The notes: generated by a model from the sequence alone, not told the origin. A stretch of DNA of 64,000 bases from Synergistaceae bacterium (GCA_031269875.1 JAISYM010000085.1:1963-65962); one strand, 5' to 3'; positions 1 to 62,496 are shown, counted from the first letter of the stretch. Translations and numbers: made by a program.

Positions 1-170
1 CATAAAGCGGTATGGAAAACTTACAGCACTCGATGAAGAAAAGTTAAAACACAAAGAACTGCTTGACAGGATAGCGAGGATGAAAATTTCCTGAAAAAAT
101 CACACATTATCTGTTATCAAAATCTCACACGGTGTTTTGGAACCGCCGCGGGACGTGTTAAAATAATCCA

Positions 171-1358
171 GTGGATGCTTCGATAGCCGGAGGGGTGCGT
201 TTGCAAAATTCGAAAGGCTCCGCCCTCATAAGCAGATTGAAGCAGAGCATCGCGCCTTTTATTGTGTTGCTGTGCTTTTTCGTGGTGCTGGCGGCCATGG
301 TGATATGGCCTCTCGCCTCGGCGCTCGCTTGGGCGGCCGTCTTGTCTTTTTTCACCTATCCGCTCTATCGCTTCATATATCACAAATTGATGCGAGGACA
401 CTTTTCGTACATCGCGTCCGGCATAAATACGTTTCTGATACTGTTTCTGCTGGTACTGCCCATGTTCGGCCTGATTGCGGCGGTGGTTCGGGAATTGGGG
501 TATTTTTACCAATTCTTCGTGGAATGGTTTCCCACAGTGAGAGGACGTCCGTTGAGCGCGGTTTTGCCGATACCACATCTCGACTGGCTTCTGTCGAAAT
601 ATCCGGACTTCTTCGAACTGCCCATGTGGAGCGACATGGCGGCGAACCTTCCGGGCATCATCACGTCATTCATGACCAAACTGTCGGGACAGATACTGGG
701 CAACGCGTTTCAGCTCGGTTTCAACCTGCTCGTCATAACGGTCGGCACGTTTTTTCTCACCCACGACGGAGAGAGTTTCGCCCGTTTCGCGAGGGAGATA
801 CTGCCCCTCTCGGAGACGGAGAAGGATGTATTCTTCTCGCGTGTCAAACAGATGCTCTACGCGATTTTTTACGGGATAATCATGACGGCCGGGATTCAGG
901 CGGCGCTTGGGGGGCTTGGGTGGTGGTTCGTAGGGTTGTCGAATCCGGTGCTTTTCGGCTCGCTGATGTTTTTCCTGGCCATGCTGCCGTTTGTGGGGAC
1001 TCCGATGGTCATGGTACCGGGAGCCGTTTATCTTTTCGCATCCGGCGACGTGAAAAACGCGGCGATTCTCCTCGCATGGAGCATTCTCGTCGTCAGCTCG
1101 ATCGACAATCTGCTGAGACCGCTTTTTATATATGAGGAGACGAACGCTCATATTCTCATGATATTCACGGGCCTCCTCGGAGGAATTTACACCTGGGGCT
1201 TCTTAGGCCTTTTCATGGGGCCGTTGATACTGTCGGTAGCTTACTTCATGCTTCGCCTGTACCACACCGCGACATTTACGCCGGAAGCGGGAATGCCTCC
1301 GGCGGATGAACCGGATAAACCGAACGGCGCGCCGGGCACAACGGCCCCTAAAACTTAA
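171..1358 (+). CDS. AI-2E family transporter (PerM/UPF0118-type permease)
   Basis: 395-aa ORF with many hydrophobic helices. The C-terminal half (GIQAALGGLGWWFVG, MLPFVGTPMVMVPG, SSIDNLLRPLFI) resembles the AI-2E/PF01594 family. Start is uncertain: GTG at 171, or TTG at 201 six nt after GGAGGG. Confidence 0.8.
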   Translation: MDASIAGGVRLQNSKGSALISRLKQSIAPFIVLLCFFVVLAAMVIWPLASALAWAAVLSFFTYPLYRFIYHKLMRGHFSYIASGINTFLILFLLVLPMFGLIAAVVRELGYFYQFFVEWFPTVRGRPLSAVLPIPHLDWLLSKYPDFFELPMWSDMAANLPGIITSFMTKLSGQILGNAFQLGFNLLVITVGTFFLTHDGESFARFAREILPLSETEKDVFFSRVKQMLYAIFYGIIMTAGIQAALGGLGWWFVGLSNPVLFGSLMFFLAMLPFVGTPMVMVPGAVYLFASGDVKNAAILLAWSILVVSSIDNLLRPLFIYEETNAHILMIFTGLLGGIYTWGFLGLFMGPLILSVAYFMLRLYHTATFTPEAGMPPADEPDKPNGAPGTTAPKT

Positions 1359-1984
1359 GGATTGTTCAGTTGGGCTACAATATTCAGAAAAACGCTCACA
1401 AGCTTGTCATGTCTCGCGTAAAGCTCGTCCCCCGGTTGAGCGGCGTTACGAAGCGCCTGTTCGTCGTCTATCAGTTTTCCCAATAGCCGTATCTCCTCTT
1501 TGTAGTCACGTCCCTTGGACTCTCCGGCCTGGCCCTGTTCCGCGATAGAGTGTTTGAGTTCCGACACCTGCCGCGAGAGCGAATCCCGTTCTTCCACCAG
1601 GCGTTTGAAACGGTCGCTCAGACGGGCGTATTGTTCCATCAATTCTTCGTGTTTTTGCTGCGGGACCATTTCGAAGGACACGCTCTGCGGCGCCGGCGCG
1701 GAAGATTCTATCTGCGGCGGATATACCTGCCCTTGTGCCTGTGCATGAGCCTGAGCGGTCGTCTGTATTTGCGCCTCAATCGGTATTTGCACCGGTTCTT
1801 CTCGAGGCTGCGCCGGGACCTGCAATATCTGTTCCGGCGCAGGCGGTTCCTGCGCTGTGTTGTTAATCGGCGTCTTTACAGCGGCCACCGCGGCCGCGAC
1901 TGAAGCCACCGCCGGACCGTGAGCCTTCGGCGGCGGGCTGGGCGGCTGGTAAGCGGTCAATTCCCTGAATTCTTGTTCGGTCAT
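1355..1984 (-). CDS. Hypothetical Pro/Gln/Ala-rich protein with C-terminal coiled coil
   Basis: Track ORF is 1355..2002. The ATG at 1984 (MTEQEF) lies 9 nt after GGGAGGG and just downstream of TTGACA-N16-GATAAT. The N-terminal half is low-complexity and the C-terminal half is heptad-like (ELMEQYARLSDRFKRLVEERDSLSRQVSELK). No family recognised. Confidence 0.55.
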   Translation of the reverse strand: MTEQEFRELTAYQPPSPPPKAHGPAVASVAAAVAAVKTPINNTAQEPPAPEQILQVPAQPREEPVQIPIEAQIQTTAQAHAQAQGQVYPPQIESSAPAPQSVSFEMVPQQKHEELMEQYARLSDRFKRLVEERDSLSRQVSELKHSIAEQGQAGESKGRDYKEEIRLLGKLIDDEQALRNAAQPGDELYARHDKLVSVFLNIVAQLNNP

Positions 1985-2017
1985 CCCTTGATGCCCTCCC
2001 ATGGTGAAATTAACATA

Positions 2018-2045
2018 ATTATCGCGCAGAGCGGCGAAATGTCAA
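2018..2045 (-). promoter_or_regulatory. Sigma70-type promoter for the coiled-coil protein gene
   Basis: On the minus strand: TTGACA, 16-nt spacer, GATAAT, about 30 nt upstream of the ATG at 1984. Confidence 0.5.
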
Positions 2046-2208
2046 ATGTTAAAATTTTAAGAGAAGATTCCCCTTGAGGGAAATTGGCTGAATTTATTAC
2101 TGAACCACAGGCATGAACCTTTATAGCTCCCGCTGGTTGGACTTTGCCTCTGAACAACCAGCGTGAGTAAGCGCTGATCAATTAATCAGCCTGAACTTTC
2201 CTTGGTTT

Positions 2209-2685
2209 TCAGTAATCCTTCCTCTCCGAGGCTTCCCTCATCAGATAGTTCGAATAGTCGTGCACTACCGGTTTGTAGGGTTCGGCGAAGAGGGGGGAGC
2301 TTATCACGAAGTCGGCGGTCGATTTGTTGCATGCGATTACGGTGTTGTAAACGGTGCAAAGGCGCACCAGTGCTTTGACGTCGACGTCGTGCGGCTGTGT
2401 TGTCATCGGATCCGTGAGGAAGACCAGTATATCGAGATTTCCCTCGGTTATGAGAGCTCCCATCTGCTGGTCGCCTCCCAGAGGACCCGATTTGAGGCAC
2501 GTCAGGCTGAGACTGAGTTTCGGGAATTCCCTCTCGAACATCTCAGCTATGAGCTTGCCGGTGGTGCCGGTGCAGATTATCCTGTGAGGGGCCAGTGTCA
2601 CCGCGTTGAAACGCACCCAGTCGAGCATGTCCTGTTTTCGCGCGTCGTGAGCCACCAACCCTATTTTCTTGATTTTTTCCATCAA
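2209..2685 (-). CDS. mgsA: Methylglyoxal synthase
   Basis: 158 aa. Motifs LVAHDARK, TGTTG, SGPLGGDQQ and PHDVDVKAL align with E. coli MgsA along the whole length. Confidence 0.9.
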   Translation of the reverse strand: MMEKIKKIGLVAHDARKQDMLDWVRFNAVTLAPHRIICTGTTGKLIAEMFEREFPKLSLSLTCLKSGPLGGDQQMGALITEGNLDILVFLTDPMTTQPHDVDVKALVRLCTVYNTVIACNKSTADFVISSPLFAEPYKPVVHDYSNYLMREASERKDY

Positions 2686-2726
2686 ACTTCACTTCCTGTC
2701 GTGTTTTGTTTCGTCCCGCGCAGGCG

Positions 2727-4133
2727 TCAGTCGGCCATGGCGGACAGTATTCTGTCATATATGCCGGTGTTCTCGTATTCTCCGGCGAAGGATTCGGATT
2801 TTATTCCGGCGGCCGACACGGGCACCTTTTTGCCGGTGTGTCCGAACGTCGACCAAGTGATACCGCAGTGCGCGTTCGAGGACGCCATGCAGGCGATCGT
2901 GAACGGGTCGTATGCGGAGTACAGTTTGTCGTAGTTCGCCGCGGCGGATTTTCTGCTTTTGGCGGCCATCGCGCTCAGCTTGAACGCGCGTTCGATATCC
3001 GGCGCGGCGGCTATCCATGGCCCGAAAAATTTTTTCGCGGTGTTCACGTAATCGGCCATTTTTTCGCCCTTTTTGGGGGAGACGCGCCGCTCGAAAACGG
3101 CGTACGAGCCTTGCTGCAGCGAGAGCGTATCGTAGACGGCGTTTTCCGCATGATCAAGGGAGGAGAGCGCCATACCCCCAGTCTCGTGGTCGCCCGTGAC
3201 CACTATCAGTGTCGACCCGGGCCTCGTCTCCATGAATTTGACCGCGCGTTCCACCGCTTCGTCGAACGCCATCGTCTCGCGCACCGTCGCGGCGGCGTCG
3301 TGAGCGTGACAGGCGAGATCTATTTTACCCCCTTCCACCATCATGAAAAAACCGTCACGGCCGTCGAGCGTCTCGATTCCGTAATCCACTAGATCGGCCA
3401 GGGACGGGCCGCTTCTTTCGTCGATGACCCACGGCATGTATCCGTTCGACGCCCTGGGGTGCACGGCTATCACTTTATCCGCTATGGGCGCGCCGAGATC
3501 GCGGGTCACCGCGTATCCCTTCGACGACGCTATCCCGTAAAGATCGGCGCTTTTTTTGTCGCGCCCTTTGGGGTTTCGGAAACCGCCCCCGCCGAAATAC
3601 TCGTATCCGCTGCCGGTCAGTTGAATCCCCAAGGAATAATGTTCGGTCCTTTTTCCGGCGTGCCCGTAGAAGGCAGCCGGAGTAGCGTCCTGAAAGAACG
3701 ACGACGTGACGATGCCCGTCTTCATGCCCTTTCGGTGAGCCATTTCGGCGATCGAGACGTAATTTTCGCCGGATTTGGGGTTCATCGCCACCACTCCGTT
3801 CCGCGCCTTGTGCCCCGTCGCGAGCGCGGTGCCCGCCGCGGCGGAGTCCGTGATGCCGGAGAGCGAATCAGTTTCGATGAATCCCTGCACCGGCAGCAAA
3901 TTCATCGCGAGCTGAGCCTCGCGGGGAGTGACGTCGCCGCGCGCCTCCCTCATGCCAGCCAGATACATTTCAGCGGCGTTTCTCTGCGCCGTCCCCATTC
4001 CGTCCCCTATGAAAAGAAATATATATTTCGCGGCGCCGTTCGCGGGCGCGGCTTCGAATCCGGCGAGCAAGACCACCGCAAGGAGAAGCGCCGCGAGGCG
4101 CGGCATGATTTTTTTTACCGAAATTTCTCGCAT
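2727..4133 (-). CDS. Alkaline phosphatase (PhoA family), exported
   Basis: Motifs GDGMG, nucleophile block TDSAAAGTALATGHK, GGKIDLACHAHD and VTGDHETGG. The ATG at 4133 (MREISVKK) is 8 nt after GGAAAGGA and is followed by a signal peptide (LAALLLAVVLLAGFEAAPANG). The track start at 4208 is rejected. Confidence 0.85.
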   Translation of the reverse strand: MREISVKKIMPRLAALLLAVVLLAGFEAAPANGAAKYIFLFIGDGMGTAQRNAAEMYLAGMREARGDVTPREAQLAMNLLPVQGFIETDSLSGITDSAAAGTALATGHKARNGVVAMNPKSGENYVSIAEMAHRKGMKTGIVTSSFFQDATPAAFYGHAGKRTEHYSLGIQLTGSGYEYFGGGGFRNPKGRDKKSADLYGIASSKGYAVTRDLGAPIADKVIAVHPRASNGYMPWVIDERSGPSLADLVDYGIETLDGRDGFFMMVEGGKIDLACHAHDAAATVRETMAFDEAVERAVKFMETRPGSTLIVVTGDHETGGMALSSLDHAENAVYDTLSLQQGSYAVFERRVSPKKGEKMADYVNTAKKFFGPWIAAAPDIERAFKLSAMAAKSRKSAAANYDKLYSAYDPFTIACMASSNAHCGITWSTFGHTGKKVPVSAAGIKSESFAGEYENTGIYDRILSAMAD

Positions 4134-4159
4134 AAAATAAATCCTTTCCGCATTTAAAA

Positions 4160-4187
4160 TTGACGAAACGCCCTTTGATGGTACAAT
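4160..4187 (+). promoter_or_regulatory. Sigma70-type promoter (extended -10) for the kinase-family gene
   Basis: TTGACG (4160..4165), 16-nt spacer ending in TGg, then TACAAT (4182..4187). Confidence 0.45.
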
Positions 4188-4280
4188 TAAAAGTGCGTTT
4201 CCCGTCACGTGTTATTATATTCTATAATGTTCATTTGGACATGCGTCAATTTAAACCGTCCAATCGGAGGGATGCGAGTT

Positions 4281-5939
4281 ATGGGGTTTACTGTGAATGT
4301 AATCGAGGGCGATAAAGTTCAGAAAATATATTCCGACACGCCGATAATGGGACACGAGGTACTGTCGTTCACGGATACCGACGCCAGGGGTCCGGGGCTC
4401 GTCATGGCGTGGCGGGTCAACAAAATTCTGCGCCCCATGAGCTGGGTCATCGACGACGAAGCCGACGTGGAATTCGTGGACACGTCGACATTCGAGGGGG
4501 CCGAAATCTACAGGAGCACGCTGACGTTCCTTCTGGCCCTCGCCTGCAAGAGGGCGCTCGACCGGGACGTGTCCGTGAAATATTCGATGAGCGACAGTTA
4601 TTACTGCGAATTTCAAAAGGGACCGGCCACCGAGGAGCAGATCGCGCGCGTGAGGGAAGAGATGGAGAAGATGGCGGCCTCCGCGCTCCCCATCCAGCTT
4701 GCCACGCTCCCCCTGGACAAAGCCCGCAGGATATTCGAGCGCCAGGGCAGCGGTGACAGGGCAAGGCTCATTCAATGCACGGGAGCCGACCCGGTCATGC
4801 TCTACAGGTGCGCCGGCATATACGGCTATTTCGGCGTCCCGCTGGCGTCGTCCACCAGCGTCATAAAAACGTTCGATCTCAACTTCTTCGCGCCGGGGTT
4901 TTTGCTGCGGTTTCCGTCGATAACGGCCCCTGACGCACTTCCCCCGCTTCAGGTCGTGCCGAAACTGATGGATGTGTTCCGCGAATACTCGAACTGGCTC
5001 GACGTATTGGGACTCTCCACCATGGACAGCCTCCACGAGCGCGTGGCGAGAGGAAAATCGCTCGAACTGATACTGATATCCGAGGCGTTTCACGGCGAGG
5101 CCTTAGCGCGCATCGCGAACAGCGTAATCGGACGTCCCGAGGTAAGGCTGCTCTGTCTTGCCGGGCCGTCCAGCTCGGGAAAGACCACCACTTCCAAGCG
5201 TCTCGCGATACAGCTCCAGGTGAGCGGCAAAAATCCGATAGCTATCGCGCTGGACGATTATTACGTCGACCGCGACAAAACGCCCCGCGGCGAAAACGGC
5301 GATTACGATTTCGAGACGCTGGAAGCCCTCGACCTGGAGCTGATAAACGAACAGATAAACGCCCTCCTGGCGGGCGAGGAAGTTCAGCTTCCGAGGTACG
5401 ATTTCGTCGCCGGCACCCGAAAACCCGGACGCAAACTGAGGCTCCACCTGAACGACATCCTGATCATTGAGGGCATTCACGGACTCAACGACAAACTCAC
5501 CGCGGATATCCCTAAGGAAGCCAAACGCAAAGTATTCATATCCCCCCTCACCGGGGTCAATCTCGACGCGCACAACAGGATAGGCACCACGGACACGCGG
5601 CTTTTGCGCAGACTGGTGCGCGACTACCGCACGAGGGGGCACGGCCCTGAACACACGCTTCTCATGTGGCCGTCGGTGGTGAAGGGTTCGCACAAACATA
5701 TCTTTCCTTACGAGGAGGGAGCCGACCTGCTTTTCAACTCATCGCTTGTCTACGAGATATCGGTGATGAAGGGATACGCGGAACCTCTGCTGCGCTCCGT
5801 GCCGGAGAACTCCCCCGCATACGGCGAAGCGTCGCGCCTTCTGTCCATGCTCAGTTTCGCGCCGGTCATACCGTCCGATAACGTGCCGAACCTATCCATA
5901 CTGCGCGAATTCATAGGAGGAGGCTGCTTTGAGGATTGA
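4281..5939 (+). CDS. Uridine kinase/phosphoribulokinase-family nucleoside kinase with long N-terminal extension
   Basis: Track ORF is 4209..5939. The ATG at 4281 is 9 nt after GGAGGG. The C-terminal half has P-loop GPSSSGKTT plus LDDYY and IIEGIHGLN motifs of the PRK/Udk family. The ~290-aa N-terminal region is of uncertain family. Confidence 0.65.
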   Translation: MGFTVNVIEGDKVQKIYSDTPIMGHEVLSFTDTDARGPGLVMAWRVNKILRPMSWVIDDEADVEFVDTSTFEGAEIYRSTLTFLLALACKRALDRDVSVKYSMSDSYYCEFQKGPATEEQIARVREEMEKMAASALPIQLATLPLDKARRIFERQGSGDRARLIQCTGADPVMLYRCAGIYGYFGVPLASSTSVIKTFDLNFFAPGFLLRFPSITAPDALPPLQVVPKLMDVFREYSNWLDVLGLSTMDSLHERVARGKSLELILISEAFHGEALARIANSVIGRPEVRLLCLAGPSSSGKTTTSKRLAIQLQVSGKNPIAIALDDYYVDRDKTPRGENGDYDFETLEALDLELINEQINALLAGEEVQLPRYDFVAGTRKPGRKLRLHLNDILIIEGIHGLNDKLTADIPKEAKRKVFISPLTGVNLDAHNRIGTTDTRLLRRLVRDYRTRGHGPEHTLLMWPSVVKGSHKHIFPYEEGADLLFNSSLVYEISVMKGYAEPLLRSVPENSPAYGEASRLLSMLSFAPVIPSDNVPNLSILREFIGGGCFED

Positions 5940-5957
5940 ACGCCGGGGTAGCGTAAC

Positions 5958-8900
5958 GTGCTGATCCTCCATTGCTGCCGCGGTGAAGGCTTCTTCCTCT
6001 GGGGGGAGCGCTCGTTCGCGGGCAGGAATTTCAGGGGCAGGCGCCGTCTTACGGGCGCGATACCGGATCATCCGTACGCTCCCGACGCCGAACGCATCCG
6101 CGAGGCTTTGTCCTCCGGTGGGTGCGAATACCCTTTCCCGGCCGGCGCCGCGAAAATAGAGCTGAAACTGCCCACCGTCGGCGGCAAATATCCGATCCCG
6201 TCGACCCCTCTCCTCGGCGAACTTCCCAAACGATACGCGCGGGCCGCAAACGGAGCGTCCGCGCAAGTCTGGATGGCGGAAGCGGTTCCCGCCGGCGCGG
6301 CGGTTTTGGCCGAGACGAGAGAATTTTTCACCTCGCGCGAGACCGTATCGCCCGACGGCAGGTTTCTGGCAAATGGGCTCATGGCCGCGCTCGATCTCTG
6401 TTACGTGATGGAATGCTGCTCTTTCGTCGTCTCGATGCTGGAGCGCGGAAGATTTTTGCCCGATATCAGGATGTCGGAGGATAAAAACAGGTACGAATCC
6501 ATCTGGACGCCGATGCTAGCCGGTGACGACGCCGCGAGGTACCGCAGGCTGCGCGGCGTGATGCCCGATATTCTGAGGACATCGCGCGGCGGGGACGCGC
6601 CGGCCGAAACGGTGCTGCGCGATATAATCTCCGATTTCCTCGACGGCCTCATCCGGGACGCATGGACGCAAAAGGGGAGCTGCGACGCGGACGCGTCGTC
6701 GCGCAAGGTGATGAAGGCGATAATGAAAAACGCCTCCTGTCCCGCCGAGTACGCCCGCGAGAGGAAACGCCGCGGAAAACTGGTGAACGCGCTGAACCCG
6801 CACGCGCTGTGGATTCGCTCTCTCGGCTGGATGGGTGAGACCGACGGCCTGAGCCAGTCACTCGCGTCCATATACCGCGAGGTGAAAGAATGGCGCGGCT
6901 GTTACGAGTGGATGGCGCACGTTCCCTTTCAACTGGCGGTGACGCTCTCGGGAAGCGGGAAAAACCCCGGCCATTGGCATCTGGAGTATTCGTCCGTATG
7001 CGAGACATCGGGCAGGACGCTCCCGGCGCGCGATGTCTGGAACGCGCCGAGTGACACTTCCGAAGCCGGTTATATGAGGCGCTACACACTTCTCATGCTC
7101 GGCCGGATCGGCGCGGTCTTTCCCCCCGTAGAAAGGAGCCTCGAATTGCCCGCTCCCGAGGGGTGCCCGCTGACGCTCGCCGAAACCGCGGATTTTTTGC
7201 AAAACCACGCCCCGGAGTTGACGGAAATGGGTGTGAAAGTAATTTACCCAGACTGGTGGAGCGAAAATTCGTCCGAGATGCTCGCGATCCTCGGTACGCG
7301 CGGCGAAGATTCATCGTTACGGTGGCGCCTCGCGTGGCGCGGAACCGTTTTGTCGGACAAAGAAAAACGCGCGGTGGTGGACGGCGATTGCCCATTGATT
7401 CGCTTGAGGGGGGAGTGGGCGTACATATCGCGCGAGCGCGTCTCGGAACTCATGCTCCGCCTCGGACGTTTACCGGAGGAAATTTCGACGGTCGATGCCA
7501 TACGTATCGCGATACAGGATCCCTTCATCGACGGGTTTTCGGACATGCCTGAACTCGAATCGATATACGCGGCTCTGCGGAGCGAGGTTCCGCCCGAGAT
7601 ACTCCCAGCGCCGAAAAACATGAGGGGAGAACTGCGCGCTTATCAGGAAGTCGGTTATTCGTGGCTCGCGTTTTTATCGGGGCTCGGCATCGGGGCGTGC
7701 CTCGCGGACGATATGGGATTGGGCAAGACGATTCAGACGCTGGCGCTCGTCGAGCGGTACCGCGGCATGGGCCGTCCGCGCCCCGTGCTTCTGATCTGTC
7801 CGACATCGGTCATCGAGACCTGGAGGATGGAGGCCGAGAAATTTTTCCCCTCACTGCCGCTTTACATACATCACGGACACGACAGACGGCGAGGCGAGGC
7901 ATTCGCCCGCGCGGCCGAATCGAGCGCCTTGGTGATGTCGAGTTACGCGCTGCTTCACCGCGACGCCGAATTATACAAAAATGTCGGCTGGCACGGTATC
8001 ATCCTCGACGAAGCACAGAACATCAAGAACCACGACACGAGGCAGTCGCGCGCCGCGAGAAGCCTGCGCGCCGACTGGAGAATAGCGCTCACCGGCACGC
8101 CCATCGAGAATCACGTCGGCGACCTGTGGTCGATCATGGAATTTCTCATGCCGGGCATGCTTGGCAGCAGAAGGCATTTCACCAACCGTTACGTCAAACC
8201 GATATCCGCCGCGCAAGATTCCGGCGCGATGGAAAAATTGAGGAACACGGTGCGGCCGTTTATAATGCGCAGGCTCAAGACCGATCCGGCGATAGCGCCG
8301 GATCTCCCCCGCAAGATAGAGACGGTGGAGTATTGCGGCCTTAAACGCGAGCAGATGAAACTGTACGCGGCCGTCGCCGGCGAATTCACGAGGGAACTCG
8401 ATAGCGTGTCCGGCATGAAGAGAAAGGGCCTGGTTCTGGCCGGTCTCACCAGAATGAAACAAATATGCGACCATCCCTCCCTGTTCGCGAAAGACGGGGA
8501 CTTGGACCCTGAGCGCTCGTCGAAACTGGAAAGGCTTATGTCTCTGGCGGAAGAGATGCACGAGGCCGGCGACGGGACGCTCATATTCACCCAATACGTC
8601 GAAATGGGGGAAATCCTCAAGTACCAGCTTCAGGAACGTTTCGGGCGCGAGGCTTTTTTCCTGCACGGCGGGGTGCCGAAGGCAGACAGGGACAAAATGG
8701 TGCGCGCCTTTCAGGAGAGCGAGGGGGCGAGATTCTTCGTCCTGTCGTTGCGGGCGGGCGGCGTTGGACTGAACCTCACCAGGGCGAACCAGGTCGTCAT
8801 GTACGACCGGTGGTGGAATCCGGCGGTCGAGACGCAGGCCATCGACAGAGCTTACAGGATCGGCCAGACATCCAACGTGCAGGTTCATATATTCTGCTGC

Positions 8901-9056
8901 AAGGGAACGCTCGAGGAACGCATAGGCGACATGATAGCGTCAAAAAAAACGCTGGCGGACAGCGTGATCCTGGAGCGCGGCAACTGGATCACCGAATTGT
9001 CCGACAGGGAACTCAAAAAACTCGTCGCGCTCTCACCAAGGATGGCGCGCTCATGA
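5958..9056 (+). CDS. SNF2-family DEAD/DEAH-box helicase with large N-terminal domain
   Basis: GTG start. Motifs LADDMGLGKT (I), ILDEAQNIKN (II), LTGTPIEN (III) and helicase-C block GGVGLNLTRANQVVMYDRWWNPAVETQAIDRAYRIGQ. The ~560-aa N-terminal region includes RLRGEWAYISRE, which is SNF2-associated-like. Confidence 0.85.
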   Translation: MLILHCCRGEGFFLWGERSFAGRNFRGRRRLTGAIPDHPYAPDAERIREALSSGGCEYPFPAGAAKIELKLPTVGGKYPIPSTPLLGELPKRYARAANGASAQVWMAEAVPAGAAVLAETREFFTSRETVSPDGRFLANGLMAALDLCYVMECCSFVVSMLERGRFLPDIRMSEDKNRYESIWTPMLAGDDAARYRRLRGVMPDILRTSRGGDAPAETVLRDIISDFLDGLIRDAWTQKGSCDADASSRKVMKAIMKNASCPAEYARERKRRGKLVNALNPHALWIRSLGWMGETDGLSQSLASIYREVKEWRGCYEWMAHVPFQLAVTLSGSGKNPGHWHLEYSSVCETSGRTLPARDVWNAPSDTSEAGYMRRYTLLMLGRIGAVFPPVERSLELPAPEGCPLTLAETADFLQNHAPELTEMGVKVIYPDWWSENSSEMLAILGTRGEDSSLRWRLAWRGTVLSDKEKRAVVDGDCPLIRLRGEWAYISRERVSELMLRLGRLPEEISTVDAIRIAIQDPFIDGFSDMPELESIYAALRSEVPPEILPAPKNMRGELRAYQEVGYSWLAFLSGLGIGACLADDMGLGKTIQTLALVERYRGMGRPRPVLLICPTSVIETWRMEAEKFFPSLPLYIHHGHDRRRGEAFARAAESSALVMSSYALLHRDAELYKNVGWHGIILDEAQNIKNHDTRQSRAARSLRADWRIALTGTPIENHVGDLWSIMEFLMPGMLGSRRHFTNRYVKPISAAQDSGAMEKLRNTVRPFIMRRLKTDPAIAPDLPRKIETVEYCGLKREQMKLYAAVAGEFTRELDSVSGMKRKGLVLAGLTRMKQICDHPSLFAKDGDLDPERSSKLERLMSLAEEMHEAGDGTLIFTQYVEMGEILKYQLQERFGREAFFLHGGVPKADRDKMVRAFQESEGARFFVLSLRAGGVGLNLTRANQVVMYDRWWNPAVETQAIDRAYRIGQTSNVQVHIFCCKGTLEERIGDMIASKKTLADSVILERGNWITELSDRELKKLVALSPRMARS

Positions 9057-9907: not shown

Positions 9908-9929
9908 CTCGCGCGGGACACAACCTTGT

Positions 9930-10562: not shown

Positions 10563-10634
10563 CGTTTCATCCTCCTCGTTCTCATTAATTATAGTATTTA
10601 AAAGTTTTGTGAGTCTATATCCCCGGCACTTCGC

Positions 10635-12186: not shown

Positions 12187-12198
12187 TTCCGGGACACT

Positions 12199-13598: not shown

Positions 13599-13616
13599 AT
13601 CGTTTCGTCGCTCCTT

Positions 13617-48880: not shown

Positions 48881-48898
48881 AAGGAGCGACGAAACGAT

Positions 48899-50298: not shown

Positions 50299-50310
50299 AG
50301 TGTCCCGGAA

Positions 50311-51862: not shown

Positions 51863-51934
51863 GCGAAGTGCCGGGGATATAGACTCACAAAACTTTTAAA
51901 TACTATAATTAATGAGAACGAGGAGGATGAAACG

Positions 51935-52567: not shown

Positions 52568-52589
52568 ACAAGGTTGTGTCCCGCGCGAG

Positions 52590-56400: not shown

Positions 56401-56539
56401 TGCGTTCGGCGTCGGGAGCGTACGGATGATCCGGTATCGCGCCCGTAAGACGGCGCCTGCCCCTGAAATTCCTGCCCGCGAACGAGCGCTCCCCCCAGAG
56501 GAAGAAGCCTTCACCGCGGCAGCAATGGAGGATCAGCAC
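53441..56539 (-). CDS. SNF2-family helicase (mirror copy)
   Basis: Mirror of 5958..9056, with an identical 1032-aa translation. Confidence 0.85.
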   Translation of the reverse strand: MLILHCCRGEGFFLWGERSFAGRNFRGRRRLTGAIPDHPYAPDAERIREALSSGGCEYPFPAGAAKIELKLPTVGGKYPIPSTPLLGELPKRYARAANGASAQVWMAEAVPAGAAVLAETREFFTSRETVSPDGRFLANGLMAALDLCYVMECCSFVVSMLERGRFLPDIRMSEDKNRYESIWTPMLAGDDAARYRRLRGVMPDILRTSRGGDAPAETVLRDIISDFLDGLIRDAWTQKGSCDADASSRKVMKAIMKNASCPAEYARERKRRGKLVNALNPHALWIRSLGWMGETDGLSQSLASIYREVKEWRGCYEWMAHVPFQLAVTLSGSGKNPGHWHLEYSSVCETSGRTLPARDVWNAPSDTSEAGYMRRYTLLMLGRIGAVFPPVERSLELPAPEGCPLTLAETADFLQNHAPELTEMGVKVIYPDWWSENSSEMLAILGTRGEDSSLRWRLAWRGTVLSDKEKRAVVDGDCPLIRLRGEWAYISRERVSELMLRLGRLPEEISTVDAIRIAIQDPFIDGFSDMPELESIYAALRSEVPPEILPAPKNMRGELRAYQEVGYSWLAFLSGLGIGACLADDMGLGKTIQTLALVERYRGMGRPRPVLLICPTSVIETWRMEAEKFFPSLPLYIHHGHDRRRGEAFARAAESSALVMSSYALLHRDAELYKNVGWHGIILDEAQNIKNHDTRQSRAARSLRADWRIALTGTPIENHVGDLWSIMEFLMPGMLGSRRHFTNRYVKPISAAQDSGAMEKLRNTVRPFIMRRLKTDPAIAPDLPRKIETVEYCGLKREQMKLYAAVAGEFTRELDSVSGMKRKGLVLAGLTRMKQICDHPSLFAKDGDLDPERSSKLERLMSLAEEMHEAGDGTLIFTQYVEMGEILKYQLQERFGREAFFLHGGVPKADRDKMVRAFQESEGARFFVLSLRAGGVGLNLTRANQVVMYDRWWNPAVETQAIDRAYRIGQTSNVQVHIFCCKGTLEERIGDMIASKKTLADSVILERGNWITELSDRELKKLVALSPRMARS

Positions 56540-56557
56540 GTTACGCTACCCCGGCGT

Positions 56558-58216
56558 TCAATCCTCAAAGCAGCCTCCTCCTATGAATTCGCGCAGTATG
56601 GATAGGTTCGGCACGTTATCGGACGGTATGACCGGCGCGAAACTGAGCATGGACAGAAGGCGCGACGCTTCGCCGTATGCGGGGGAGTTCTCCGGCACGG
56701 AGCGCAGCAGAGGTTCCGCGTATCCCTTCATCACCGATATCTCGTAGACAAGCGATGAGTTGAAAAGCAGGTCGGCTCCCTCCTCGTAAGGAAAGATATG
56801 TTTGTGCGAACCCTTCACCACCGACGGCCACATGAGAAGCGTGTGTTCAGGGCCGTGCCCCCTCGTGCGGTAGTCGCGCACCAGTCTGCGCAAAAGCCGC
56901 GTGTCCGTGGTGCCTATCCTGTTGTGCGCGTCGAGATTGACCCCGGTGAGGGGGGATATGAATACTTTGCGTTTGGCTTCCTTAGGGATATCCGCGGTGA
57001 GTTTGTCGTTGAGTCCGTGAATGCCCTCAATGATCAGGATGTCGTTCAGGTGGAGCCTCAGTTTGCGTCCGGGTTTTCGGGTGCCGGCGACGAAATCGTA
57101 CCTCGGAAGCTGAACTTCCTCGCCCGCCAGGAGGGCGTTTATCTGTTCGTTTATCAGCTCCAGGTCGAGGGCTTCCAGCGTCTCGAAATCGTAATCGCCG
57201 TTTTCGCCGCGGGGCGTTTTGTCGCGGTCGACGTAATAATCGTCCAGCGCGATAGCTATCGGATTTTTGCCGCTCACCTGGAGCTGTATCGCGAGACGCT
57301 TGGAAGTGGTGGTCTTTCCCGAGCTGGACGGCCCGGCAAGACAGAGCAGCCTTACCTCGGGACGTCCGATTACGCTGTTCGCGATGCGCGCTAAGGCCTC
57401 GCCGTGAAACGCCTCGGATATCAGTATCAGTTCGAGCGATTTTCCTCTCGCCACGCGCTCGTGGAGGCTGTCCATGGTGGAGAGTCCCAATACGTCGAGC
57501 CAGTTCGAGTATTCGCGGAACACATCCATCAGTTTCGGCACGACCTGAAGCGGGGGAAGTGCGTCAGGGGCCGTTATCGACGGAAACCGCAGCAAAAACC
57601 CCGGCGCGAAGAAGTTGAGATCGAACGTTTTTATGACGCTGGTGGACGACGCCAGCGGGACGCCGAAATAGCCGTATATGCCGGCGCACCTGTAGAGCAT
57701 GACCGGGTCGGCTCCCGTGCATTGAATGAGCCTTGCCCTGTCACCGCTGCCCTGGCGCTCGAATATCCTGCGGGCTTTGTCCAGGGGGAGCGTGGCAAGC
57801 TGGATGGGGAGCGCGGAGGCCGCCATCTTCTCCATCTCTTCCCTCACGCGCGCGATCTGCTCCTCGGTGGCCGGTCCCTTTTGAAATTCGCAGTAATAAC
57901 TGTCGCTCATCGAATATTTCACGGACACGTCCCGGTCGAGCGCCCTCTTGCAGGCGAGGGCCAGAAGGAACGTCAGCGTGCTCCTGTAGATTTCGGCCCC
58001 CTCGAATGTCGACGTGTCCACGAATTCCACGTCGGCTTCGTCGTCGATGACCCAGCTCATGGGGCGCAGAATTTTGTTGACCCGCCACGCCATGACGAGC
58101 CCCGGACCCCTGGCGTCGGTATCCGTGAACGACAGTACCTCGTGTCCCATTATCGGCGTGTCGGAATATATTTTCTGAACTTTATCGCCCTCGATTACAT
58201 TCACAGTAAACCCCAT
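56558..58216 (-). CDS. Uridine kinase/PRK-family kinase with N-terminal extension (mirror copy)
   Basis: Mirror of 4281..5939. Confidence 0.65.
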   Translation of the reverse strand: MGFTVNVIEGDKVQKIYSDTPIMGHEVLSFTDTDARGPGLVMAWRVNKILRPMSWVIDDEADVEFVDTSTFEGAEIYRSTLTFLLALACKRALDRDVSVKYSMSDSYYCEFQKGPATEEQIARVREEMEKMAASALPIQLATLPLDKARRIFERQGSGDRARLIQCTGADPVMLYRCAGIYGYFGVPLASSTSVIKTFDLNFFAPGFLLRFPSITAPDALPPLQVVPKLMDVFREYSNWLDVLGLSTMDSLHERVARGKSLELILISEAFHGEALARIANSVIGRPEVRLLCLAGPSSSGKTTTSKRLAIQLQVSGKNPIAIALDDYYVDRDKTPRGENGDYDFETLEALDLELINEQINALLAGEEVQLPRYDFVAGTRKPGRKLRLHLNDILIIEGIHGLNDKLTADIPKEAKRKVFISPLTGVNLDAHNRIGTTDTRLLRRLVRDYRTRGHGPEHTLLMWPSVVKGSHKHIFPYEEGADLLFNSSLVYEISVMKGYAEPLLRSVPENSPAYGEASRLLSMLSFAPVIPSDNVPNLSILREFIGGGCFED

Positions 58217-58309
58217 AACTCGCATCCCTCCGATTGGACGGTTTAAATTGACGCATGTCCAAATGAACATTATAGAATATAATAACACGTGACGGGAAAC
58301 GCACTTTTA

Positions 58310-58337
58310 ATTGTACCATCAAAGGGCGTTTCGTCAA
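58310..58337 (-). promoter_or_regulatory. Sigma70-type promoter for the kinase-family gene (mirror copy)
   Basis: Mirror of 4160..4187. Confidence 0.45.
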
Positions 58338-58363
58338 TTTTAAATGCGGAAAGGATTTATTTT

Positions 58364-59770
58364 ATGCGAGAAATTTCGGTAAAAAAAATCATGCCGCGCC
58401 TCGCGGCGCTTCTCCTTGCGGTGGTCTTGCTCGCCGGATTCGAAGCCGCGCCCGCGAACGGCGCCGCGAAATATATATTTCTTTTCATAGGGGACGGAAT
58501 GGGGACGGCGCAGAGAAACGCCGCTGAAATGTATCTGGCTGGCATGAGGGAGGCGCGCGGCGACGTCACTCCCCGCGAGGCTCAGCTCGCGATGAATTTG
58601 CTGCCGGTGCAGGGATTCATCGAAACTGATTCGCTCTCCGGCATCACGGACTCCGCCGCGGCGGGCACCGCGCTCGCGACGGGGCACAAGGCGCGGAACG
58701 GAGTGGTGGCGATGAACCCCAAATCCGGCGAAAATTACGTCTCGATCGCCGAAATGGCTCACCGAAAGGGCATGAAGACGGGCATCGTCACGTCGTCGTT
58801 CTTTCAGGACGCTACTCCGGCTGCCTTCTACGGGCACGCCGGAAAAAGGACCGAACATTATTCCTTGGGGATTCAACTGACCGGCAGCGGATACGAGTAT
58901 TTCGGCGGGGGCGGTTTCCGAAACCCCAAAGGGCGCGACAAAAAAAGCGCCGATCTTTACGGGATAGCGTCGTCGAAGGGATACGCGGTGACCCGCGATC
59001 TCGGCGCGCCCATAGCGGATAAAGTGATAGCCGTGCACCCCAGGGCGTCGAACGGATACATGCCGTGGGTCATCGACGAAAGAAGCGGCCCGTCCCTGGC
59101 CGATCTAGTGGATTACGGAATCGAGACGCTCGACGGCCGTGACGGTTTTTTCATGATGGTGGAAGGGGGTAAAATAGATCTCGCCTGTCACGCTCACGAC
59201 GCCGCCGCGACGGTGCGCGAGACGATGGCGTTCGACGAAGCGGTGGAACGCGCGGTCAAATTCATGGAGACGAGGCCCGGGTCGACACTGATAGTGGTCA
59301 CGGGCGACCACGAGACTGGGGGTATGGCGCTCTCCTCCCTTGATCATGCGGAAAACGCCGTCTACGATACGCTCTCGCTGCAGCAAGGCTCGTACGCCGT
59401 TTTCGAGCGGCGCGTCTCCCCCAAAAAGGGCGAAAAAATGGCCGATTACGTGAACACCGCGAAAAAATTTTTCGGGCCATGGATAGCCGCCGCGCCGGAT
59501 ATCGAACGCGCGTTCAAGCTGAGCGCGATGGCCGCCAAAAGCAGAAAATCCGCCGCGGCGAACTACGACAAACTGTACTCCGCATACGACCCGTTCACGA
59601 TCGCCTGCATGGCGTCCTCGAACGCGCACTGCGGTATCACTTGGTCGACGTTCGGACACACCGGCAAAAAGGTGCCCGTGTCGGCCGCCGGAATAAAATC
59701 CGAATCCTTCGCCGGAGAATACGAGAACACCGGCATATATGACAGAATACTGTCCGCCATGGCCGACTGA
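58364..59770 (+). CDS. Alkaline phosphatase, exported (mirror copy)
   Basis: Mirror of 2727..4133. The ATG at 58364 is 8 nt after GGAAAGGA. Confidence 0.85.
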   Translation: MREISVKKIMPRLAALLLAVVLLAGFEAAPANGAAKYIFLFIGDGMGTAQRNAAEMYLAGMREARGDVTPREAQLAMNLLPVQGFIETDSLSGITDSAAAGTALATGHKARNGVVAMNPKSGENYVSIAEMAHRKGMKTGIVTSSFFQDATPAAFYGHAGKRTEHYSLGIQLTGSGYEYFGGGGFRNPKGRDKKSADLYGIASSKGYAVTRDLGAPIADKVIAVHPRASNGYMPWVIDERSGPSLADLVDYGIETLDGRDGFFMMVEGGKIDLACHAHDAAATVRETMAFDEAVERAVKFMETRPGSTLIVVTGDHETGGMALSSLDHAENAVYDTLSLQQGSYAVFERRVSPKKGEKMADYVNTAKKFFGPWIAAAPDIERAFKLSAMAAKSRKSAAANYDKLYSAYDPFTIACMASSNAHCGITWSTFGHTGKKVPVSAAGIKSESFAGEYENTGIYDRILSAMAD

Positions 59771-59811
59771 CGCCTGCGCGGGACGAAACAAAACACGACA
59801 GGAAGTGAAGT

Positions 59812-60288
59812 TTGATGGAAAAAATCAAGAAAATAGGGTTGGTGGCTCACGACGCGCGAAAACAGGACATGCTCGACTGGGTGCGTTTCAACGCGGTGAC
59901 ACTGGCCCCTCACAGGATAATCTGCACCGGCACCACCGGCAAGCTCATAGCTGAGATGTTCGAGAGGGAATTCCCGAAACTCAGTCTCAGCCTGACGTGC
60001 CTCAAATCGGGTCCTCTGGGAGGCGACCAGCAGATGGGAGCTCTCATAACCGAGGGAAATCTCGATATACTGGTCTTCCTCACGGATCCGATGACAACAC
60101 AGCCGCACGACGTCGACGTCAAAGCACTGGTGCGCCTTTGCACCGTTTACAACACCGTAATCGCATGCAACAAATCGACCGCCGACTTCGTGATAAGCTC
60201 CCCCCTCTTCGCCGAACCCTACAAACCGGTAGTGCACGACTATTCGAACTATCTGATGAGGGAAGCCTCGGAGAGGAAGGATTACTGA
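59812..60288 (+). CDS. mgsA: Methylglyoxal synthase (mirror copy)
   Basis: Mirror of 2209..2685, with an identical translation. Confidence 0.9.
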   Translation: MMEKIKKIGLVAHDARKQDMLDWVRFNAVTLAPHRIICTGTTGKLIAEMFEREFPKLSLSLTCLKSGPLGGDQQMGALITEGNLDILVFLTDPMTTQPHDVDVKALVRLCTVYNTVIACNKSTADFVISSPLFAEPYKPVVHDYSNYLMREASERKDY

Positions 60289-60451
60289 AAACCAAGGAAA
60301 GTTCAGGCTGATTAATTGATCAGCGCTTACTCACGCTGGTTGTTCAGAGGCAAAGTCCAACCAGCGGGAGCTATAAAGGTTCATGCCTGTGGTTCAGTAA
60401 TAAATTCAGCCAATTTCCCTCAAGGGGAATCTTCTCTTAAAATTTTAACAT

Positions 60452-60479
60452 TTGACATTTCGCCGCTCTGCGCGATAAT
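60452..60479 (+). promoter_or_regulatory. Sigma70-type promoter for the coiled-coil protein gene (mirror copy)
   Basis: TTGACA (60452..60457), 16-nt spacer, GATAAT (60474..60479). Confidence 0.5.
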
Positions 60480-60512
60480 TATGTTAATTTCACCATGGGA
60501 GGGCATCAAGGG

Positions 60513-61142
60513 ATGACCGAACAAGAATTCAGGGAATTGACCGCTTACCAGCCGCCCAGCCCGCCGCCGAAGGCTCACGGTCCGGCGGTGGCTTCAGTCG
60601 CGGCCGCGGTGGCCGCTGTAAAGACGCCGATTAACAACACAGCGCAGGAACCGCCTGCGCCGGAACAGATATTGCAGGTCCCGGCGCAGCCTCGAGAAGA
60701 ACCGGTGCAAATACCGATTGAGGCGCAAATACAGACGACCGCTCAGGCTCATGCACAGGCACAAGGGCAGGTATATCCGCCGCAGATAGAATCTTCCGCG
60801 CCGGCGCCGCAGAGCGTGTCCTTCGAAATGGTCCCGCAGCAAAAACACGAAGAATTGATGGAACAATACGCCCGTCTGAGCGACCGTTTCAAACGCCTGG
60901 TGGAAGAACGGGATTCGCTCTCGCGGCAGGTGTCGGAACTCAAACACTCTATCGCGGAACAGGGCCAGGCCGGAGAGTCCAAGGGACGTGACTACAAAGA
61001 GGAGATACGGCTATTGGGAAAACTGATAGACGACGAACAGGCGCTTCGTAACGCCGCTCAACCGGGGGACGAGCTTTACGCGAGACATGACAAGCTTGTG
61101 AGCGTTTTTCTGAATATTGTAGCCCAACTGAACAATCCTTAA
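60513..61142 (+). CDS. Hypothetical Pro/Gln-rich coiled-coil protein (mirror copy)
   Basis: Mirror of 1355..1984. The ATG at 60513 is 9 nt after GGGAGGG. Confidence 0.55.
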   Translation: MTEQEFRELTAYQPPSPPPKAHGPAVASVAAAVAAVKTPINNTAQEPPAPEQILQVPAQPREEPVQIPIEAQIQTTAQAHAQAQGQVYPPQIESSAPAPQSVSFEMVPQQKHEELMEQYARLSDRFKRLVEERDSLSRQVSELKHSIAEQGQAGESKGRDYKEEIRLLGKLIDDEQALRNAAQPGDELYARHDKLVSVFLNIVAQLNNP

Positions 61143-62326
61143 GTTTTAGGGGCCGTTGTGCCCGGCGCGCCGTTCGGTTTATCCGGTTCATCCGCCGGAG
61201 GCATTCCCGCTTCCGGCGTAAATGTCGCGGTGTGGTACAGGCGAAGCATGAAGTAAGCTACCGACAGTATCAACGGCCCCATGAAAAGGCCTAAGAAGCC
61301 CCAGGTGTAAATTCCTCCGAGGAGGCCCGTGAATATCATGAGAATATGAGCGTTCGTCTCCTCATATATAAAAAGCGGTCTCAGCAGATTGTCGATCGAG
61401 CTGACGACGAGAATGCTCCATGCGAGGAGAATCGCCGCGTTTTTCACGTCGCCGGATGCGAAAAGATAAACGGCTCCCGGTACCATGACCATCGGAGTCC
61501 CCACAAACGGCAGCATGGCCAGGAAAAACATCAGCGAGCCGAAAAGCACCGGATTCGACAACCCTACGAACCACCACCCAAGCCCCCCAAGCGCCGCCTG
61601 AATCCCGGCCGTCATGATTATCCCGTAAAAAATCGCGTAGAGCATCTGTTTGACACGCGAGAAGAATACATCCTTCTCCGTCTCCGAGAGGGGCAGTATC
61701 TCCCTCGCGAAACGGGCGAAACTCTCTCCGTCGTGGGTGAGAAAAAACGTGCCGACCGTTATGACGAGCAGGTTGAAACCGAGCTGAAACGCGTTGCCCA
61801 GTATCTGTCCCGACAGTTTGGTCATGAATGACGTGATGATGCCCGGAAGGTTCGCCGCCATGTCGCTCCACATGGGCAGTTCGAAGAAGTCCGGATATTT
61901 CGACAGAAGCCAGTCGAGATGTGGTATCGGCAAAACCGCGCTCAACGGACGTCCTCTCACTGTGGGAAACCATTCCACGAAGAATTGGTAAAAATACCCC
62001 AATTCCCGAACCACCGCCGCAATCAGGCCGAACATGGGCAGTACCAGCAGAAACAGTATCAGAAACGTATTTATGCCGGACGCGATGTACGAAAAGTGTC
62101 CTCGCATCAATTTGTGATATATGAAGCGATAGAGCGGATAGGTGAAAAAAGACAAGACGGCCGCCCAAGCGAGCGCCGAGGCGAGAGGCCATATCACCAT
62201 GGCCGCCAGCACCACGAAAAAGCACAGCAACACAATAAAAGGCGCGATGCTCTGCTTCAATCTGCTTATGAGGGCGGAGCCTTTCGAATTTTGCAAACGC
62301 ACCCCTCCGGCTATCGAAGCATCCAC
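61139..62326 (-). CDS. AI-2E family transporter (mirror copy)
   Basis: Mirror of 171..1358, with an identical translation. Confidence 0.8.
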   Translation of the reverse strand: MDASIAGGVRLQNSKGSALISRLKQSIAPFIVLLCFFVVLAAMVIWPLASALAWAAVLSFFTYPLYRFIYHKLMRGHFSYIASGINTFLILFLLVLPMFGLIAAVVRELGYFYQFFVEWFPTVRGRPLSAVLPIPHLDWLLSKYPDFFELPMWSDMAANLPGIITSFMTKLSGQILGNAFQLGFNLLVITVGTFFLTHDGESFARFAREILPLSETEKDVFFSRVKQMLYAIFYGIIMTAGIQAALGGLGWWFVGLSNPVLFGSLMFFLAMLPFVGTPMVMVPGAVYLFASGDVKNAAILLAWSILVVSSIDNLLRPLFIYEETNAHILMIFTGLLGGIYTWGFLGLFMGPLILSVAYFMLRLYHTATFTPEAGMPPADEPDKPNGAPGTTAPKT

Positions 62327-62496
62327 TGGATTATTTTAACACGTCCCGCGGCGGTTCCAAAACACCGTGTGAGATTTTGATAACAGATAATGTGTGATTT
62401 TTTCAGGAAATTTTCATCCTCGCTATCCTGTCAAGCAGTTCTTTGTGTTTTAACTTTTCTTCATCGAGTGCTGTAAGTTTTCCATACCGCTTTATG

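Follow-up and report, generated by a model that had tools for sequence, protein, structure and literature searches.

The contig to which the stretch of DNA analyzed here belongs is probably a fold-back assembly artefact: a single stretch of about 33 kb from the chromosome of an uncultured termite-gut Synergistaceae bacterium was, most likely, printed twice by a short-read assembler, and the palindrome that resulted most likely reflects a problem of data quality instead of a structure with biological meaning. The analyzed stretch (which we refer to as the window) is 64,000 bp long and belongs to a contig of 66,420 bp in an NCBI Synergistaceae metagenome-assembled genome (MAG; locus tag LBS45).

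Comparing the window with itself, we found that every position x from 1 to 31248 pairs with its complement at position 62497-x (0 mismatches in 31,248 pairs), giving a palindrome from 1 to 62496 without a spacer, whose axis falls between positions 31248 and 31249, where the sequence reads ...GACTGAATAGTTACAAA/TTTGTAACTATTCAGTC... (Table 1). Symmetry of this kind cannot have arisen by chance. The sequence-only reading that preceded this work had described both the exact, spacer-less palindrome with this axis and the occurrence of all 32 genes twice in mirror order, and both descriptions hold; the 32 genes per arm in the window agree with the 33 annotated proteins per arm when the annotation is followed through PorB.

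Table 1. Features of the palindrome, of its axis and of the element beside it (window coordinates).
Feature	Position	Strand	Remarks
Left arm in window	1..31248	-	Exact reverse complement of 31249..62496; 0 mismatches
Right arm in window	31249..62496	+	Mirror of 1..31248
Right-arm continuation	62497..64000	+	PorB at 62540..63496 (-), then start of the alpha subunit; TPP_enzyme_C match
AAATTT	31246..31251	.	Sole bases between the two mirrored element termini; contains the axis (31248/31249)
Putative IS66-family MITE	31252..31522	+	271 bp, non-autonomous; termini GTAAC...GTTAC
MITE mirror copy	30975..31245	-	Reverse complement of 31252..31522
Inner 17-mer TTTGTAACTATTCAGTC	31249..31265	+	14-bp IS66-type inverted repeat plus 3 flank bases; mirror at 31232..31248
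Outer 17-mer GACTGAATAGTTACAAA	31509..31525	+	Right terminus plus flank AAA; mirror at 30972..30988
Subterminal 41-nt inverted repeat	31304..31344	+	Partner at 31442..31482, 83% complementary
Right flank AAATTTT, then C	31523..31529	+	Fits the target typical of the family, predicted target-site copy; mirror at 30968..30974
Axis-proximal ORF	31668..32345	+	225 aa; LBS45_07400 in NCBI, 221 aa; mirror at 30152..30829
Right-arm genes, part 1	31249..62496		225-aa ORF, GT4, GT2, M15 peptidase, epimerase, EamA, DUF234 ATPase, rhodanese
Right-arm genes, part 2	31249..62496		purQ/purL/purF, DUF4143 ATPase, DnaJ/SH3 protein, DUF2284, corrinoid protein
Right-arm genes, part 3	31249..62496		SNF2 helicase, PRK-like kinase, alkaline phosphatase, MGS-like protein, AI-2E transporter

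The extent first given for the palindrome, 62,496 bp, proved too small. PorB lies outside 1..62496, yet it has two accessions in the same MAG, in mirror order (MDR1515469 and MDR1515534), which sum to 3031003, as do those of all other mirror pairs; eight proteins, PorB among them, are each entered under two accessions with this sum on the one 66,420-bp contig, those of the axis-proximal ORF being consecutive (MDR1515501 and MDR1515502). Because PorB is also annotated twice, the length of the symmetric region is at least 64,496 bp. The palindrome begins at window base 1 and PorB is mirrored as well, so that the limits 1..62496 are those of the window and not of the feature: the left arm is clipped by the window edge, and at least 999 bp more lie to its left in the contig. 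The segment 62497..64000 looks unique because its mirror copy falls outside the window (that of PorB would lie at -999..-43), and the suggestion that it could serve as an unmirrored depth control for the arms is therefore invalid, since it is itself mirrored in the contig. The mirrored annotation covers at least 64,496 of the 66,420 bp, with the final 458-1,900 bp outside our view; the symmetry probably spans the whole contig, and each arm would be 33,210 bp if it does.

A contig that is palindromic from end to end is the signature of a unitig that mirrors itself, and exactness over 31 kb is the outcome to be expected when an assembler writes out a single path of a de Bruijn graph on both strands. 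For the same reason the identity of the arms is uninformative on age or on real duplication, and the earlier argument from zero divergence against an old duplication has no force, both arms being the same unitig. Published precedents point the same way. Inverted loops in the graph give palindromic maximal unitigs, which SPAdes and MEGAHIT print at full length (Rahman & Medvedev 2022, PMC9528984), and whole-contig palindromes have been judged assembly errors both in SPAdes assemblies of M. bovis (81 contigs; PMC9455707) and in single-cell assemblies (bioRxiv 10.1101/2023.06.06.543983). The palindromic de Bruijn contigs of these three studies are likewise exact over the whole contig, and they share with the present one the mirror-order double annotation of all genes and an origin in short-read graph assembly. 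They differ in that their axis content is not stated, whereas here the axis can be placed 3 bp outside the terminus of a MITE, and in that the window is known from contig sequence and annotation alone.

The probable source of the contig suits this reading. The MAG proteins (MDR15154xx-15155xx) belong to the same accession block as those of JAISXE (MDR1626320/1), a MAG whose contigs are named in the k119_ style of MEGAHIT, and MDR1626320/1 fall within the deposited range of a termite-gut batch prepared from bead-beaten DNA, sequenced as Illumina 2x150 reads and assembled with MEGAHIT v1.2.8 (k = 21..119). The source is thus most probably an Illumina 2x150/MEGAHIT metagenome bin, produced without amplification or long reads, on the circumstantial ground of accession proximity; the MAG is not in the supplements of the likely source paper. 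A fold-back artefact, as opposed to a stable palindrome, had been proposed from the sequence and is the best-supported reading, but a fold-back long read or a strand switch during amplification (MDA) as its mechanism does not fit such a source, for which a palindromic unitig in a de Bruijn graph is the relevant mechanism. The gene set itself (purQLF, glycosyltransferases, SNF2 helicase, PorB) is ordinary chromosomal, and the top matches of PurL are Synergistaceae MAGs, at most 92% identical.

The axis (earlier noted, at the correct position, as gttacaaa/tttgtaac) adjoins an element end that had been overlooked. Judged by its sequence, the 271-bp element is an IS66-family MITE, with 35.8% GC and a strong snap-back fold (z = -6.6). 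Its 14-bp ends, GTAAC...GTTAC, are those of single-ORF IS66-family insertion sequences and their MITE derivatives, and are identical to the ends of 1.47-1.7 kb elements encoding DDE_Tnp_IS66 (E = 2.6e-41); whereas these full-length relatives carry a transposase, the element here has no ORF, and tblastn with the family transposase as query found none in the window. The 17-mer formed by terminus and flank has four exact copies in the window (0.06 expected by chance), and the subterminal repeat contains the palindromic motif ACACCTG-N-CAGGTGT at 31305 and 31459. We found the terminal 20-mer again in 32 metagenome contigs unrelated to this one, often where a contig ends; neither it nor the head-to-head pattern was found in IMG/VR. 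The outer end of the MITE reads GACTGAATAGTTAC, and the contig flank there is AAATTTTCATAC. IS66-family elements duplicate 7-8 bp of target, and other family loci have such copies (AAATTTTC on both sides at L026, AAATTTTT on both sides at L016, AAATTTT at L014), whereas the left copy of the window MITE is unreadable because the contig folds back after three bases.

Specifically, the axis lies 3 bp outside the MITE terminus and inside the predicted left target-site copy: TTT (31249..31251) matches the last three bases of a predicted 7-bp copy AAATTTT, after which the contig turns back. These three bases are all of the left flank that can be read before the axis, and they fit a 7-bp target copy, not an 8-bp one. 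The junction string is GTTACAAATTTGTAAC, with the inner sequence of the element (CTTTACTAA...TTAGTAAAG) on both sides; in the contig, TTTGTAACTATTCAGTCTTAG is preceded by GTTACAAA. If the contig is an artefact, the true left flank is expected to be ...AAAT. Because an axis within 3 bp of the MITE terminus has a probability of only about 4e-4 under a uniform model, some link between axis and MITE is required. The terminus of a MITE is the kind of repeat boundary at which graph paths dead-end and unitigs stop, and a dead end of this sort, as would be expected from assembler heuristics, may be that link.

On the preferred reading, a unitig carrying the por genes, then purQLF and then the glycosyltransferase cluster would have ended at the MITE, whose terminal repeat and AAATTTT target motif are common to many elements. 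There the true continuation would have dropped from the graph, to be replaced by an 'inverted loop', a k-mer path leading from the end of the unitig into the reverse complement of the same unitig; the maximal unitig passing through this loop would be a palindromic string, which the assembler would have printed at full length. Fragment support would be needed for only about 100-150 bp across the axis, and one fold-back library fragment would suffice, because both of its mates read identical sequence. We infer that the continuation would have been lost through the repeat hub and the pruning of weak links and tips at low k, in which case it should be a contig ending in AAATTTTGTAACTATTCAG...; the source of the junction k-mers is likewise an inferred part of the explanation. 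A derivation of the junction from k-mers of other family members was rejected, as any 22-mer crossing the axis must hold CAAATTTG plus the inner sequence of this element. Such an artefact is not a routine consequence of these ends, since none of 124 natural head-to-head junctions between them in GTDB contigs is a fold-back. In an assembler of the unitig type, a fold-back survives solely if the true continuation is absent or pruned, and a real palindrome or hairpin end can give the same result.

The alternative that survives best, and which we consider unlikely, is that a palindromic duplication of recent date, or a chromosome break capped by a hairpin, really exists in part of the population. 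A double-strand break would have occurred 3 bp outside the end of the MITE (for example, through transposase action) and been sealed or primed into a hairpin, whose replication would yield an inverted duplication without a spacer, both arms of which the assembler would collapse to one unitig and print twice. The position of the axis at a mobile-element terminus, and not at a random site, agrees with this scheme, as do the snap-back capacity of the element and the presence, in similar communities, of IS66-family transposases recognizing these ends; a fold-back unitig without a competing branch is also what a real structure is expected to give. Weighing against it are the absence of a transposase from the window, a literature search on IS66 circular intermediates that gave nothing relevant, and the consequences for the chromosome, in which housekeeping genes would be doubled and the left-hand part lost or rearranged. 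Perfect palindromes of tens of kilobases are moreover unstable in bacteria, through SbcCD cleavage and slippage. The repeat-mediated routes to a fold-back that we worked through (snap-back or template switching between the MITE terminal repeats, cruciform resolution at the base of the MITE, and break-induced copying from the other repeat) would each leave one central MITE copy, whereas two complete mirrored copies are observed, for which reason we rejected them. Hairpin-capped breaks and tandem inversion duplications in yeast and Salmonella likewise yield spacer-less or nearly spacer-less products centred on a break near short inverted repeats; those cases pivot on the loop between the repeats and have an asymmetric centre, whereas in this contig two complete repeat-bearing element copies flank an exactly symmetric 6-bp centre. 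Whole-contig palindromes, finally, are documented artefacts (PMC9455707; bioRxiv 10.1101/2023.06.06.543983). That a sizeable fraction of cells physically contains the junction, whether as an inverted duplication of more than 33 kb without a spacer, arising by way of a hairpin from a break 3 bp outside the MITE, or as a palindromic extrachromosomal amplicon, is in our estimate distinctly unlikely; if true, it would suggest that IS66 transposition includes a step in which a hairpin is formed or cleavage is offset.

A partly real structure, in which two identical MITEs stand head to head (a palindrome of about 548 bp, which 150-bp reads cannot span) and the assembler re-entered the same flank, appears very unlikely. 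Abutting ends of the family are common enough, occurring in more than 120 GTDB contigs and at 3 of 32 ends in an unbiased sample, but the spacers of natural junctions are shared 7-9 bp target-site copies (7 bp in 62 and 8 bp in 21 of the 124 GTDB junctions) and not an exact 6-bp palindrome, and none of the 124 is symmetric beyond about 20 bp. A natural pair with the usual 7-bp spacer would have the odd-length centre AAATTTT instead of the even, exact AAATTT, and in a unitig assembler differing outer flanks would branch at 31522/31523, stopping the contig where it in fact runs on for 31 kb.

It is extremely improbable that the contig centre arose by reading around the tip of a hairpin telomere, the covalently closed end of a linear replicon. 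Reading through a hairpin end gives a perfect palindrome, as in Borrelia, phage N15 and the linear chromosome of Agrobacterium, and a spacer-less one at the contig centre is what would be expected here; in systems whose hairpins are formed by resolvases (TelN of N15, ResT of Borrelia, TelA of Agrobacterium), however, the tip is a dedicated telomere site, whereas in this contig it consists of an IS66-type terminal repeat plus target-site bases, a transposon end, with no resolvase gene and no gene context of a replicon end. Searches of the 33 kb against Pfam, NCBIfam and PHROGs found no telomere resolvase (protelomerase), and the same 33 kb gave no recombinase, phage or plasmid signal; a megablast of 31249..40000 against plasmids and phages returned no match, and scans for tRNAs and Rfam families found nothing. 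A GTDB scan with the axis-proximal protein returned no relative. In the closest relative (L033, 80% amino acid identity), the orthologue of the axis-proximal ORF is preceded by a gene without a counterpart in the window, and L033 and L034 both carry additional genes upstream of the orthologous ORF; because L033 continues past the equivalent point, the locus is not a chromosome end in relatives. We know of no hairpin-ended linear replicon in Synergistota.

For data hygiene the finding matters: in a MAG that is public in both NCBI and IMG, about 33 kb with at least 33 proteins are present in duplicate, and such a doubled contig makes the genome size, the gene counts and the apparent duplication too large and could pass for a giant palindrome, a hairpin telomere or a gene amplification. 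Two traps accompany it, in that neither the exactness of the arms nor a 'unique flank' created by a fixed window is evidence for or against a real structure. As biology, the palindrome most probably does not matter; were the junction real, it would be a rare natural bacterial case in which a large palindrome was seeded by the end of a mobile element, and would hint at the way in which IS66-family elements are cut.

We compared base x with base 62497-x across the window and found 31,248 of 31,248 pairs to be complementary, with no mismatches and no spacer at the axis (GACTGAATAGTTACAAA on its left, TTTGTAACTATTCAGTC on its right). This confirms the exact, spacer-less palindrome that the sequence-only reading had placed at 1-62496 and, together with the database record, enlarges its extent to at least 64,496 bp. 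The palindrome is already running at window base 1, and its left limit is therefore the window edge. An exact-sequence look-up maps the window to a 66,420-bp contig of the NCBI MAG 'Synergistaceae bacterium' (locus-tag prefix LBS45; second holding in IMG), where the axis-proximal ORF is annotated under the consecutive accessions MDR1515501 and MDR1515502, and seven further proteins (PurL, PurF, DUF2284, the corrinoid protein, a 209-aa protein, the AI-2E transporter and PorB) have accession pairs with the same sum as this pair, 3031003. PorB lies beyond the reported palindrome and yet has two accessions, so that its mirror copy must sit to the left of window base 1. The window offset inside the contig is 999-2,420 bp, the symmetric span is at least 64,496 of 66,420 bp, and the arms would be 33,210 bp long if the entire contig is symmetric. 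The '1.5-kb unique flank' is thus a truncation effect, and arm depth cannot be judged against depth over 62497..64000, as had been suggested, because that stretch is mirrored too (PorB being annotated twice). In the public record (NCBI MDR1515469-MDR1515534, and the IMG copy) at least 33 proteins are deposited twice under separate accessions.

Feature coordinates in the window, in the opposite arm and in L033, a relative with an orthologue of the axis-proximal ORF
Feature	Window	Mirror	L033
Arm-end segment (271 bp, 36% GC)	31252..31522	30975..31245	
ACACCTG-N(8-10)-CAGGTGT motif pair	31305..31327 and 31459..31481	31016 and 31170	371 and 525
Axis-proximal ORF (225 aa)	31668..32345(+)	30152..30829	
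M15 peptidase ORF (113 aa)	35506..35847	26650..26991	
ATPase gene (ATPase_2 + DUF234)	38542..39945		
Tandem repeat (unit about 23 bp, x3)	45792..45869	16628..16705	
ATPase gene (AAA_14 + DUF4143)	45901..47154		
PorB	62540..63496	-999..-43	

Long perfect palindromes are unstable in bacteria. Given this instability, a documented class of artefact and two complete mirrored copies of the arm-end element described below, the palindrome is probably an assembly artefact, and we would not count it as a real feature. The earlier attribution to a fold-back chimera is supported in substance, with a different mechanism, probably a palindromic unitig of a de Bruijn graph. Inverted loops in such graphs give palindromic maximal unitigs, which SPAdes and MEGAHIT output at full length (Rahman & Medvedev, PMC9528984). 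Whole-contig palindromes with mirrored gene sets were judged assembly errors both for 81 contigs of SPAdes M. bovis assemblies (PMC9455707) and in single-cell assemblies (bioRxiv 10.1101/2023.06.06.543983); our contig resembles these in its mirrored genes and in a symmetry that covers at least nearly the whole contig. Because both arms are the same unitig in such a graph, they cannot differ anywhere along the 31 kb, and their identity carries no evidence on age or on real duplication, and the argument that it excludes an old duplication falls away. The only physical claim of the contig is a k-mer path over the axis, about one read length.

The segment at the end of each arm (GTAACTATTCAGTC...GACTGAATAGTTAC) contains a 41-nt subterminal inverted repeat and has a strong snap-back fold (z = -6.6); a 17-mer of its ends is present in four exact copies, where chance would give 0.06 in a sequence such as the window. 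Its terminal 20-mer was found in 32 unrelated metagenome contigs (L001-L032), often near contig ends, where the same ends enclose both single-ORF elements of 1.47-1.7 kb (DDE_Tnp_IS66, E = 2.6e-41, plus DUF6444) and elements of 122-310 bp that lack an ORF. With no transposase in the window, we take the segment to be an IS66-family MITE. The elements are flanked by 7-8 bp duplications of an AAATTTT-like target (AAATTTTC on both flanks in L026, AAATTTTT on both flanks in L016, AAATTTT in L014); the right flank of the window MITE is AAATTTT(C), and its mirrored inner termini are separated by AAATTT only, which places the axis 3 bp outside the MITE terminus. Across L001-L032 the target preference is clear, with AAATTTT(N)-like flanks on both sides at most loci; the 14-bp terminal repeat is identical between very different hosts, and in several elements the transposase ORF stops within the right terminal repeat (...TE*). 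Inside the window MITE two copies of a palindromic motif lie exactly 154 bp apart; L033 has the same pair at the same distance upstream of its orthologue, where IS66-type ends are absent. The pair could be two operators, or else a small mobile module of independent origin that the IS66 ends have come to enclose.

Under a uniform model, the probability of an axis at such a position is about 4e-4; we propose the following mechanism, which accounts for an axis at a repeat boundary. The 14-bp MITE end plus the 7-bp target copy would form a string of about 21 nt, common to other family members in the community and equal to the smallest k used. The true continuation of the unitig would run into a repeat hub at the MITE end, could be disconnected there, and at low k could then be lost to the clipping of short tips. 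A single fold-back fragment in the library, lying in the final few tens of bases, would suffice to join the dead end to its own reverse complement; both mates of that fragment would read identical sequence, thereby reaching the minimum count of 2, and the join would be inherited by later k steps. Tip clipping, the minimum count and k inheritance would be the assembler heuristics behind this mechanism. As to provenance, JAISXE010000258, a GTDB match, has a contig name of the form k119_... (isolate Nc350_bin164) and falls within JAIRJQ-JAITXW, the accession range of one batch of MAGs from termite guts (bead-beaten DNA, Illumina NovaSeq 2x150, MEGAHIT v1.2.8 with k = 21..119, MetaBAT binning). 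Its proteins MDR1626320 and MDR1626321 share an accession block with the window's MDR15154xx-15155xx, and from this proximity we infer that the window MAG comes from the same batch; it is missing from the supplements of the batch paper.

A real fold-back duplication or a hairpin-capped break is improbable. Either would likewise give a fold-back unitig without a competing branch. The repeat-mediated routes considered leave one central MITE copy, so that a real structure would require a hairpin to close bluntly at a point 3 bp beyond the MITE end, a step that to our knowledge has no parallel among IS66 elements. Repeat-mediated origins as such (MITE-end snap-back, template switching between the MITE ends, cruciform resolution or break-induced copying) were rejected, because they predict one central copy and two complete mirrored copies are observed.

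Less probable again is a real head-to-head MITE pair mis-walked by the assembler. A GTDB scan for two such ends abutting within 14 bp gave at least 120 contigs from many bacterial phyla and archaea. Of the 124 junctions among the matches listed, 62 have a 7-bp spacer and 21 an 8-bp spacer; the spacers are non-palindromic, and no junction is symmetric for more than about 20 bp to either side of its centre. For 85 of these junctions the spacer could be compared with the flank on the far side of the adjoining small element, and the two are identical in 21, indicating that spacers are shared target-site copies. By this rule AAATTTT is expected before the window MITE. Three bases agree (TTT) and then the contig turns back, so the window junction is not a normal head-to-head pair; with 0 fold-backs among the 124 junctions listed, folding back is no routine outcome at such ends. 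Abutting ends are themselves very common for the single-ORF IS66 subgroup and its MITEs (GTDB contigs L035-L154, and L003, L027 and L028), with GAATAGTTAC-N-GTAACTATTC carried by at least 120 species-representative contigs and a sharp 7-bp spacer peak. This suggests that new copies insert preferentially right beside an end that is already there, or in the target-site copy of that end, building arrays (L045/L099, L061).

A hairpin telomere is very improbable: the L033 orthologue (80% amino-acid identity, aligning to the window only right of about 31606) has an upstream gene absent from the window, and sequence likewise continues upstream of the L034 orthologue (59% identity), so that the locus is no chromosome end in these relatives.

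One arm holds ordinary chromosomal genes: the 225-aa ORF, GT4 and GT2 glycosyltransferases, a small M15 peptidase, an NAD-dependent epimerase, an EamA transporter, a DUF234 ATPase, a rhodanese, purQ, purL, purF, a DUF4143 ATPase, a DnaJ/SH3 protein, DUF2284, a corrinoid protein, an SNF2 helicase, a PRK-like kinase, an alkaline phosphatase, an AI-2E transporter and PorB. The closest PurL relatives are from Synergistaceae MAGs (identity at most 92%). Scans found no tRNAs or Rfam families, a megablast search with 31249..40000 found no plasmid or phage similarity, and NCBIfam and PHROGs gave no resolvase, recombinase or phage structural matches for ORFs lacking a Pfam match. The M15 peptidase ORF, inside the glycosyltransferase/epimerase cluster, has endolysins as its best PHROG match (E = 2.2e-31), with no further phage genes nearby. 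The purQLF cluster is flanked by two distinct 'archaeal ATPase'-type genes, and a tandem repeat (ATTCGCC..ATTCTATTTTA.CAAACGCCAT) lies just upstream of the second. The double deposit of this arm inflates the MAG size and duplication statistics, and halving of the record is advisable.
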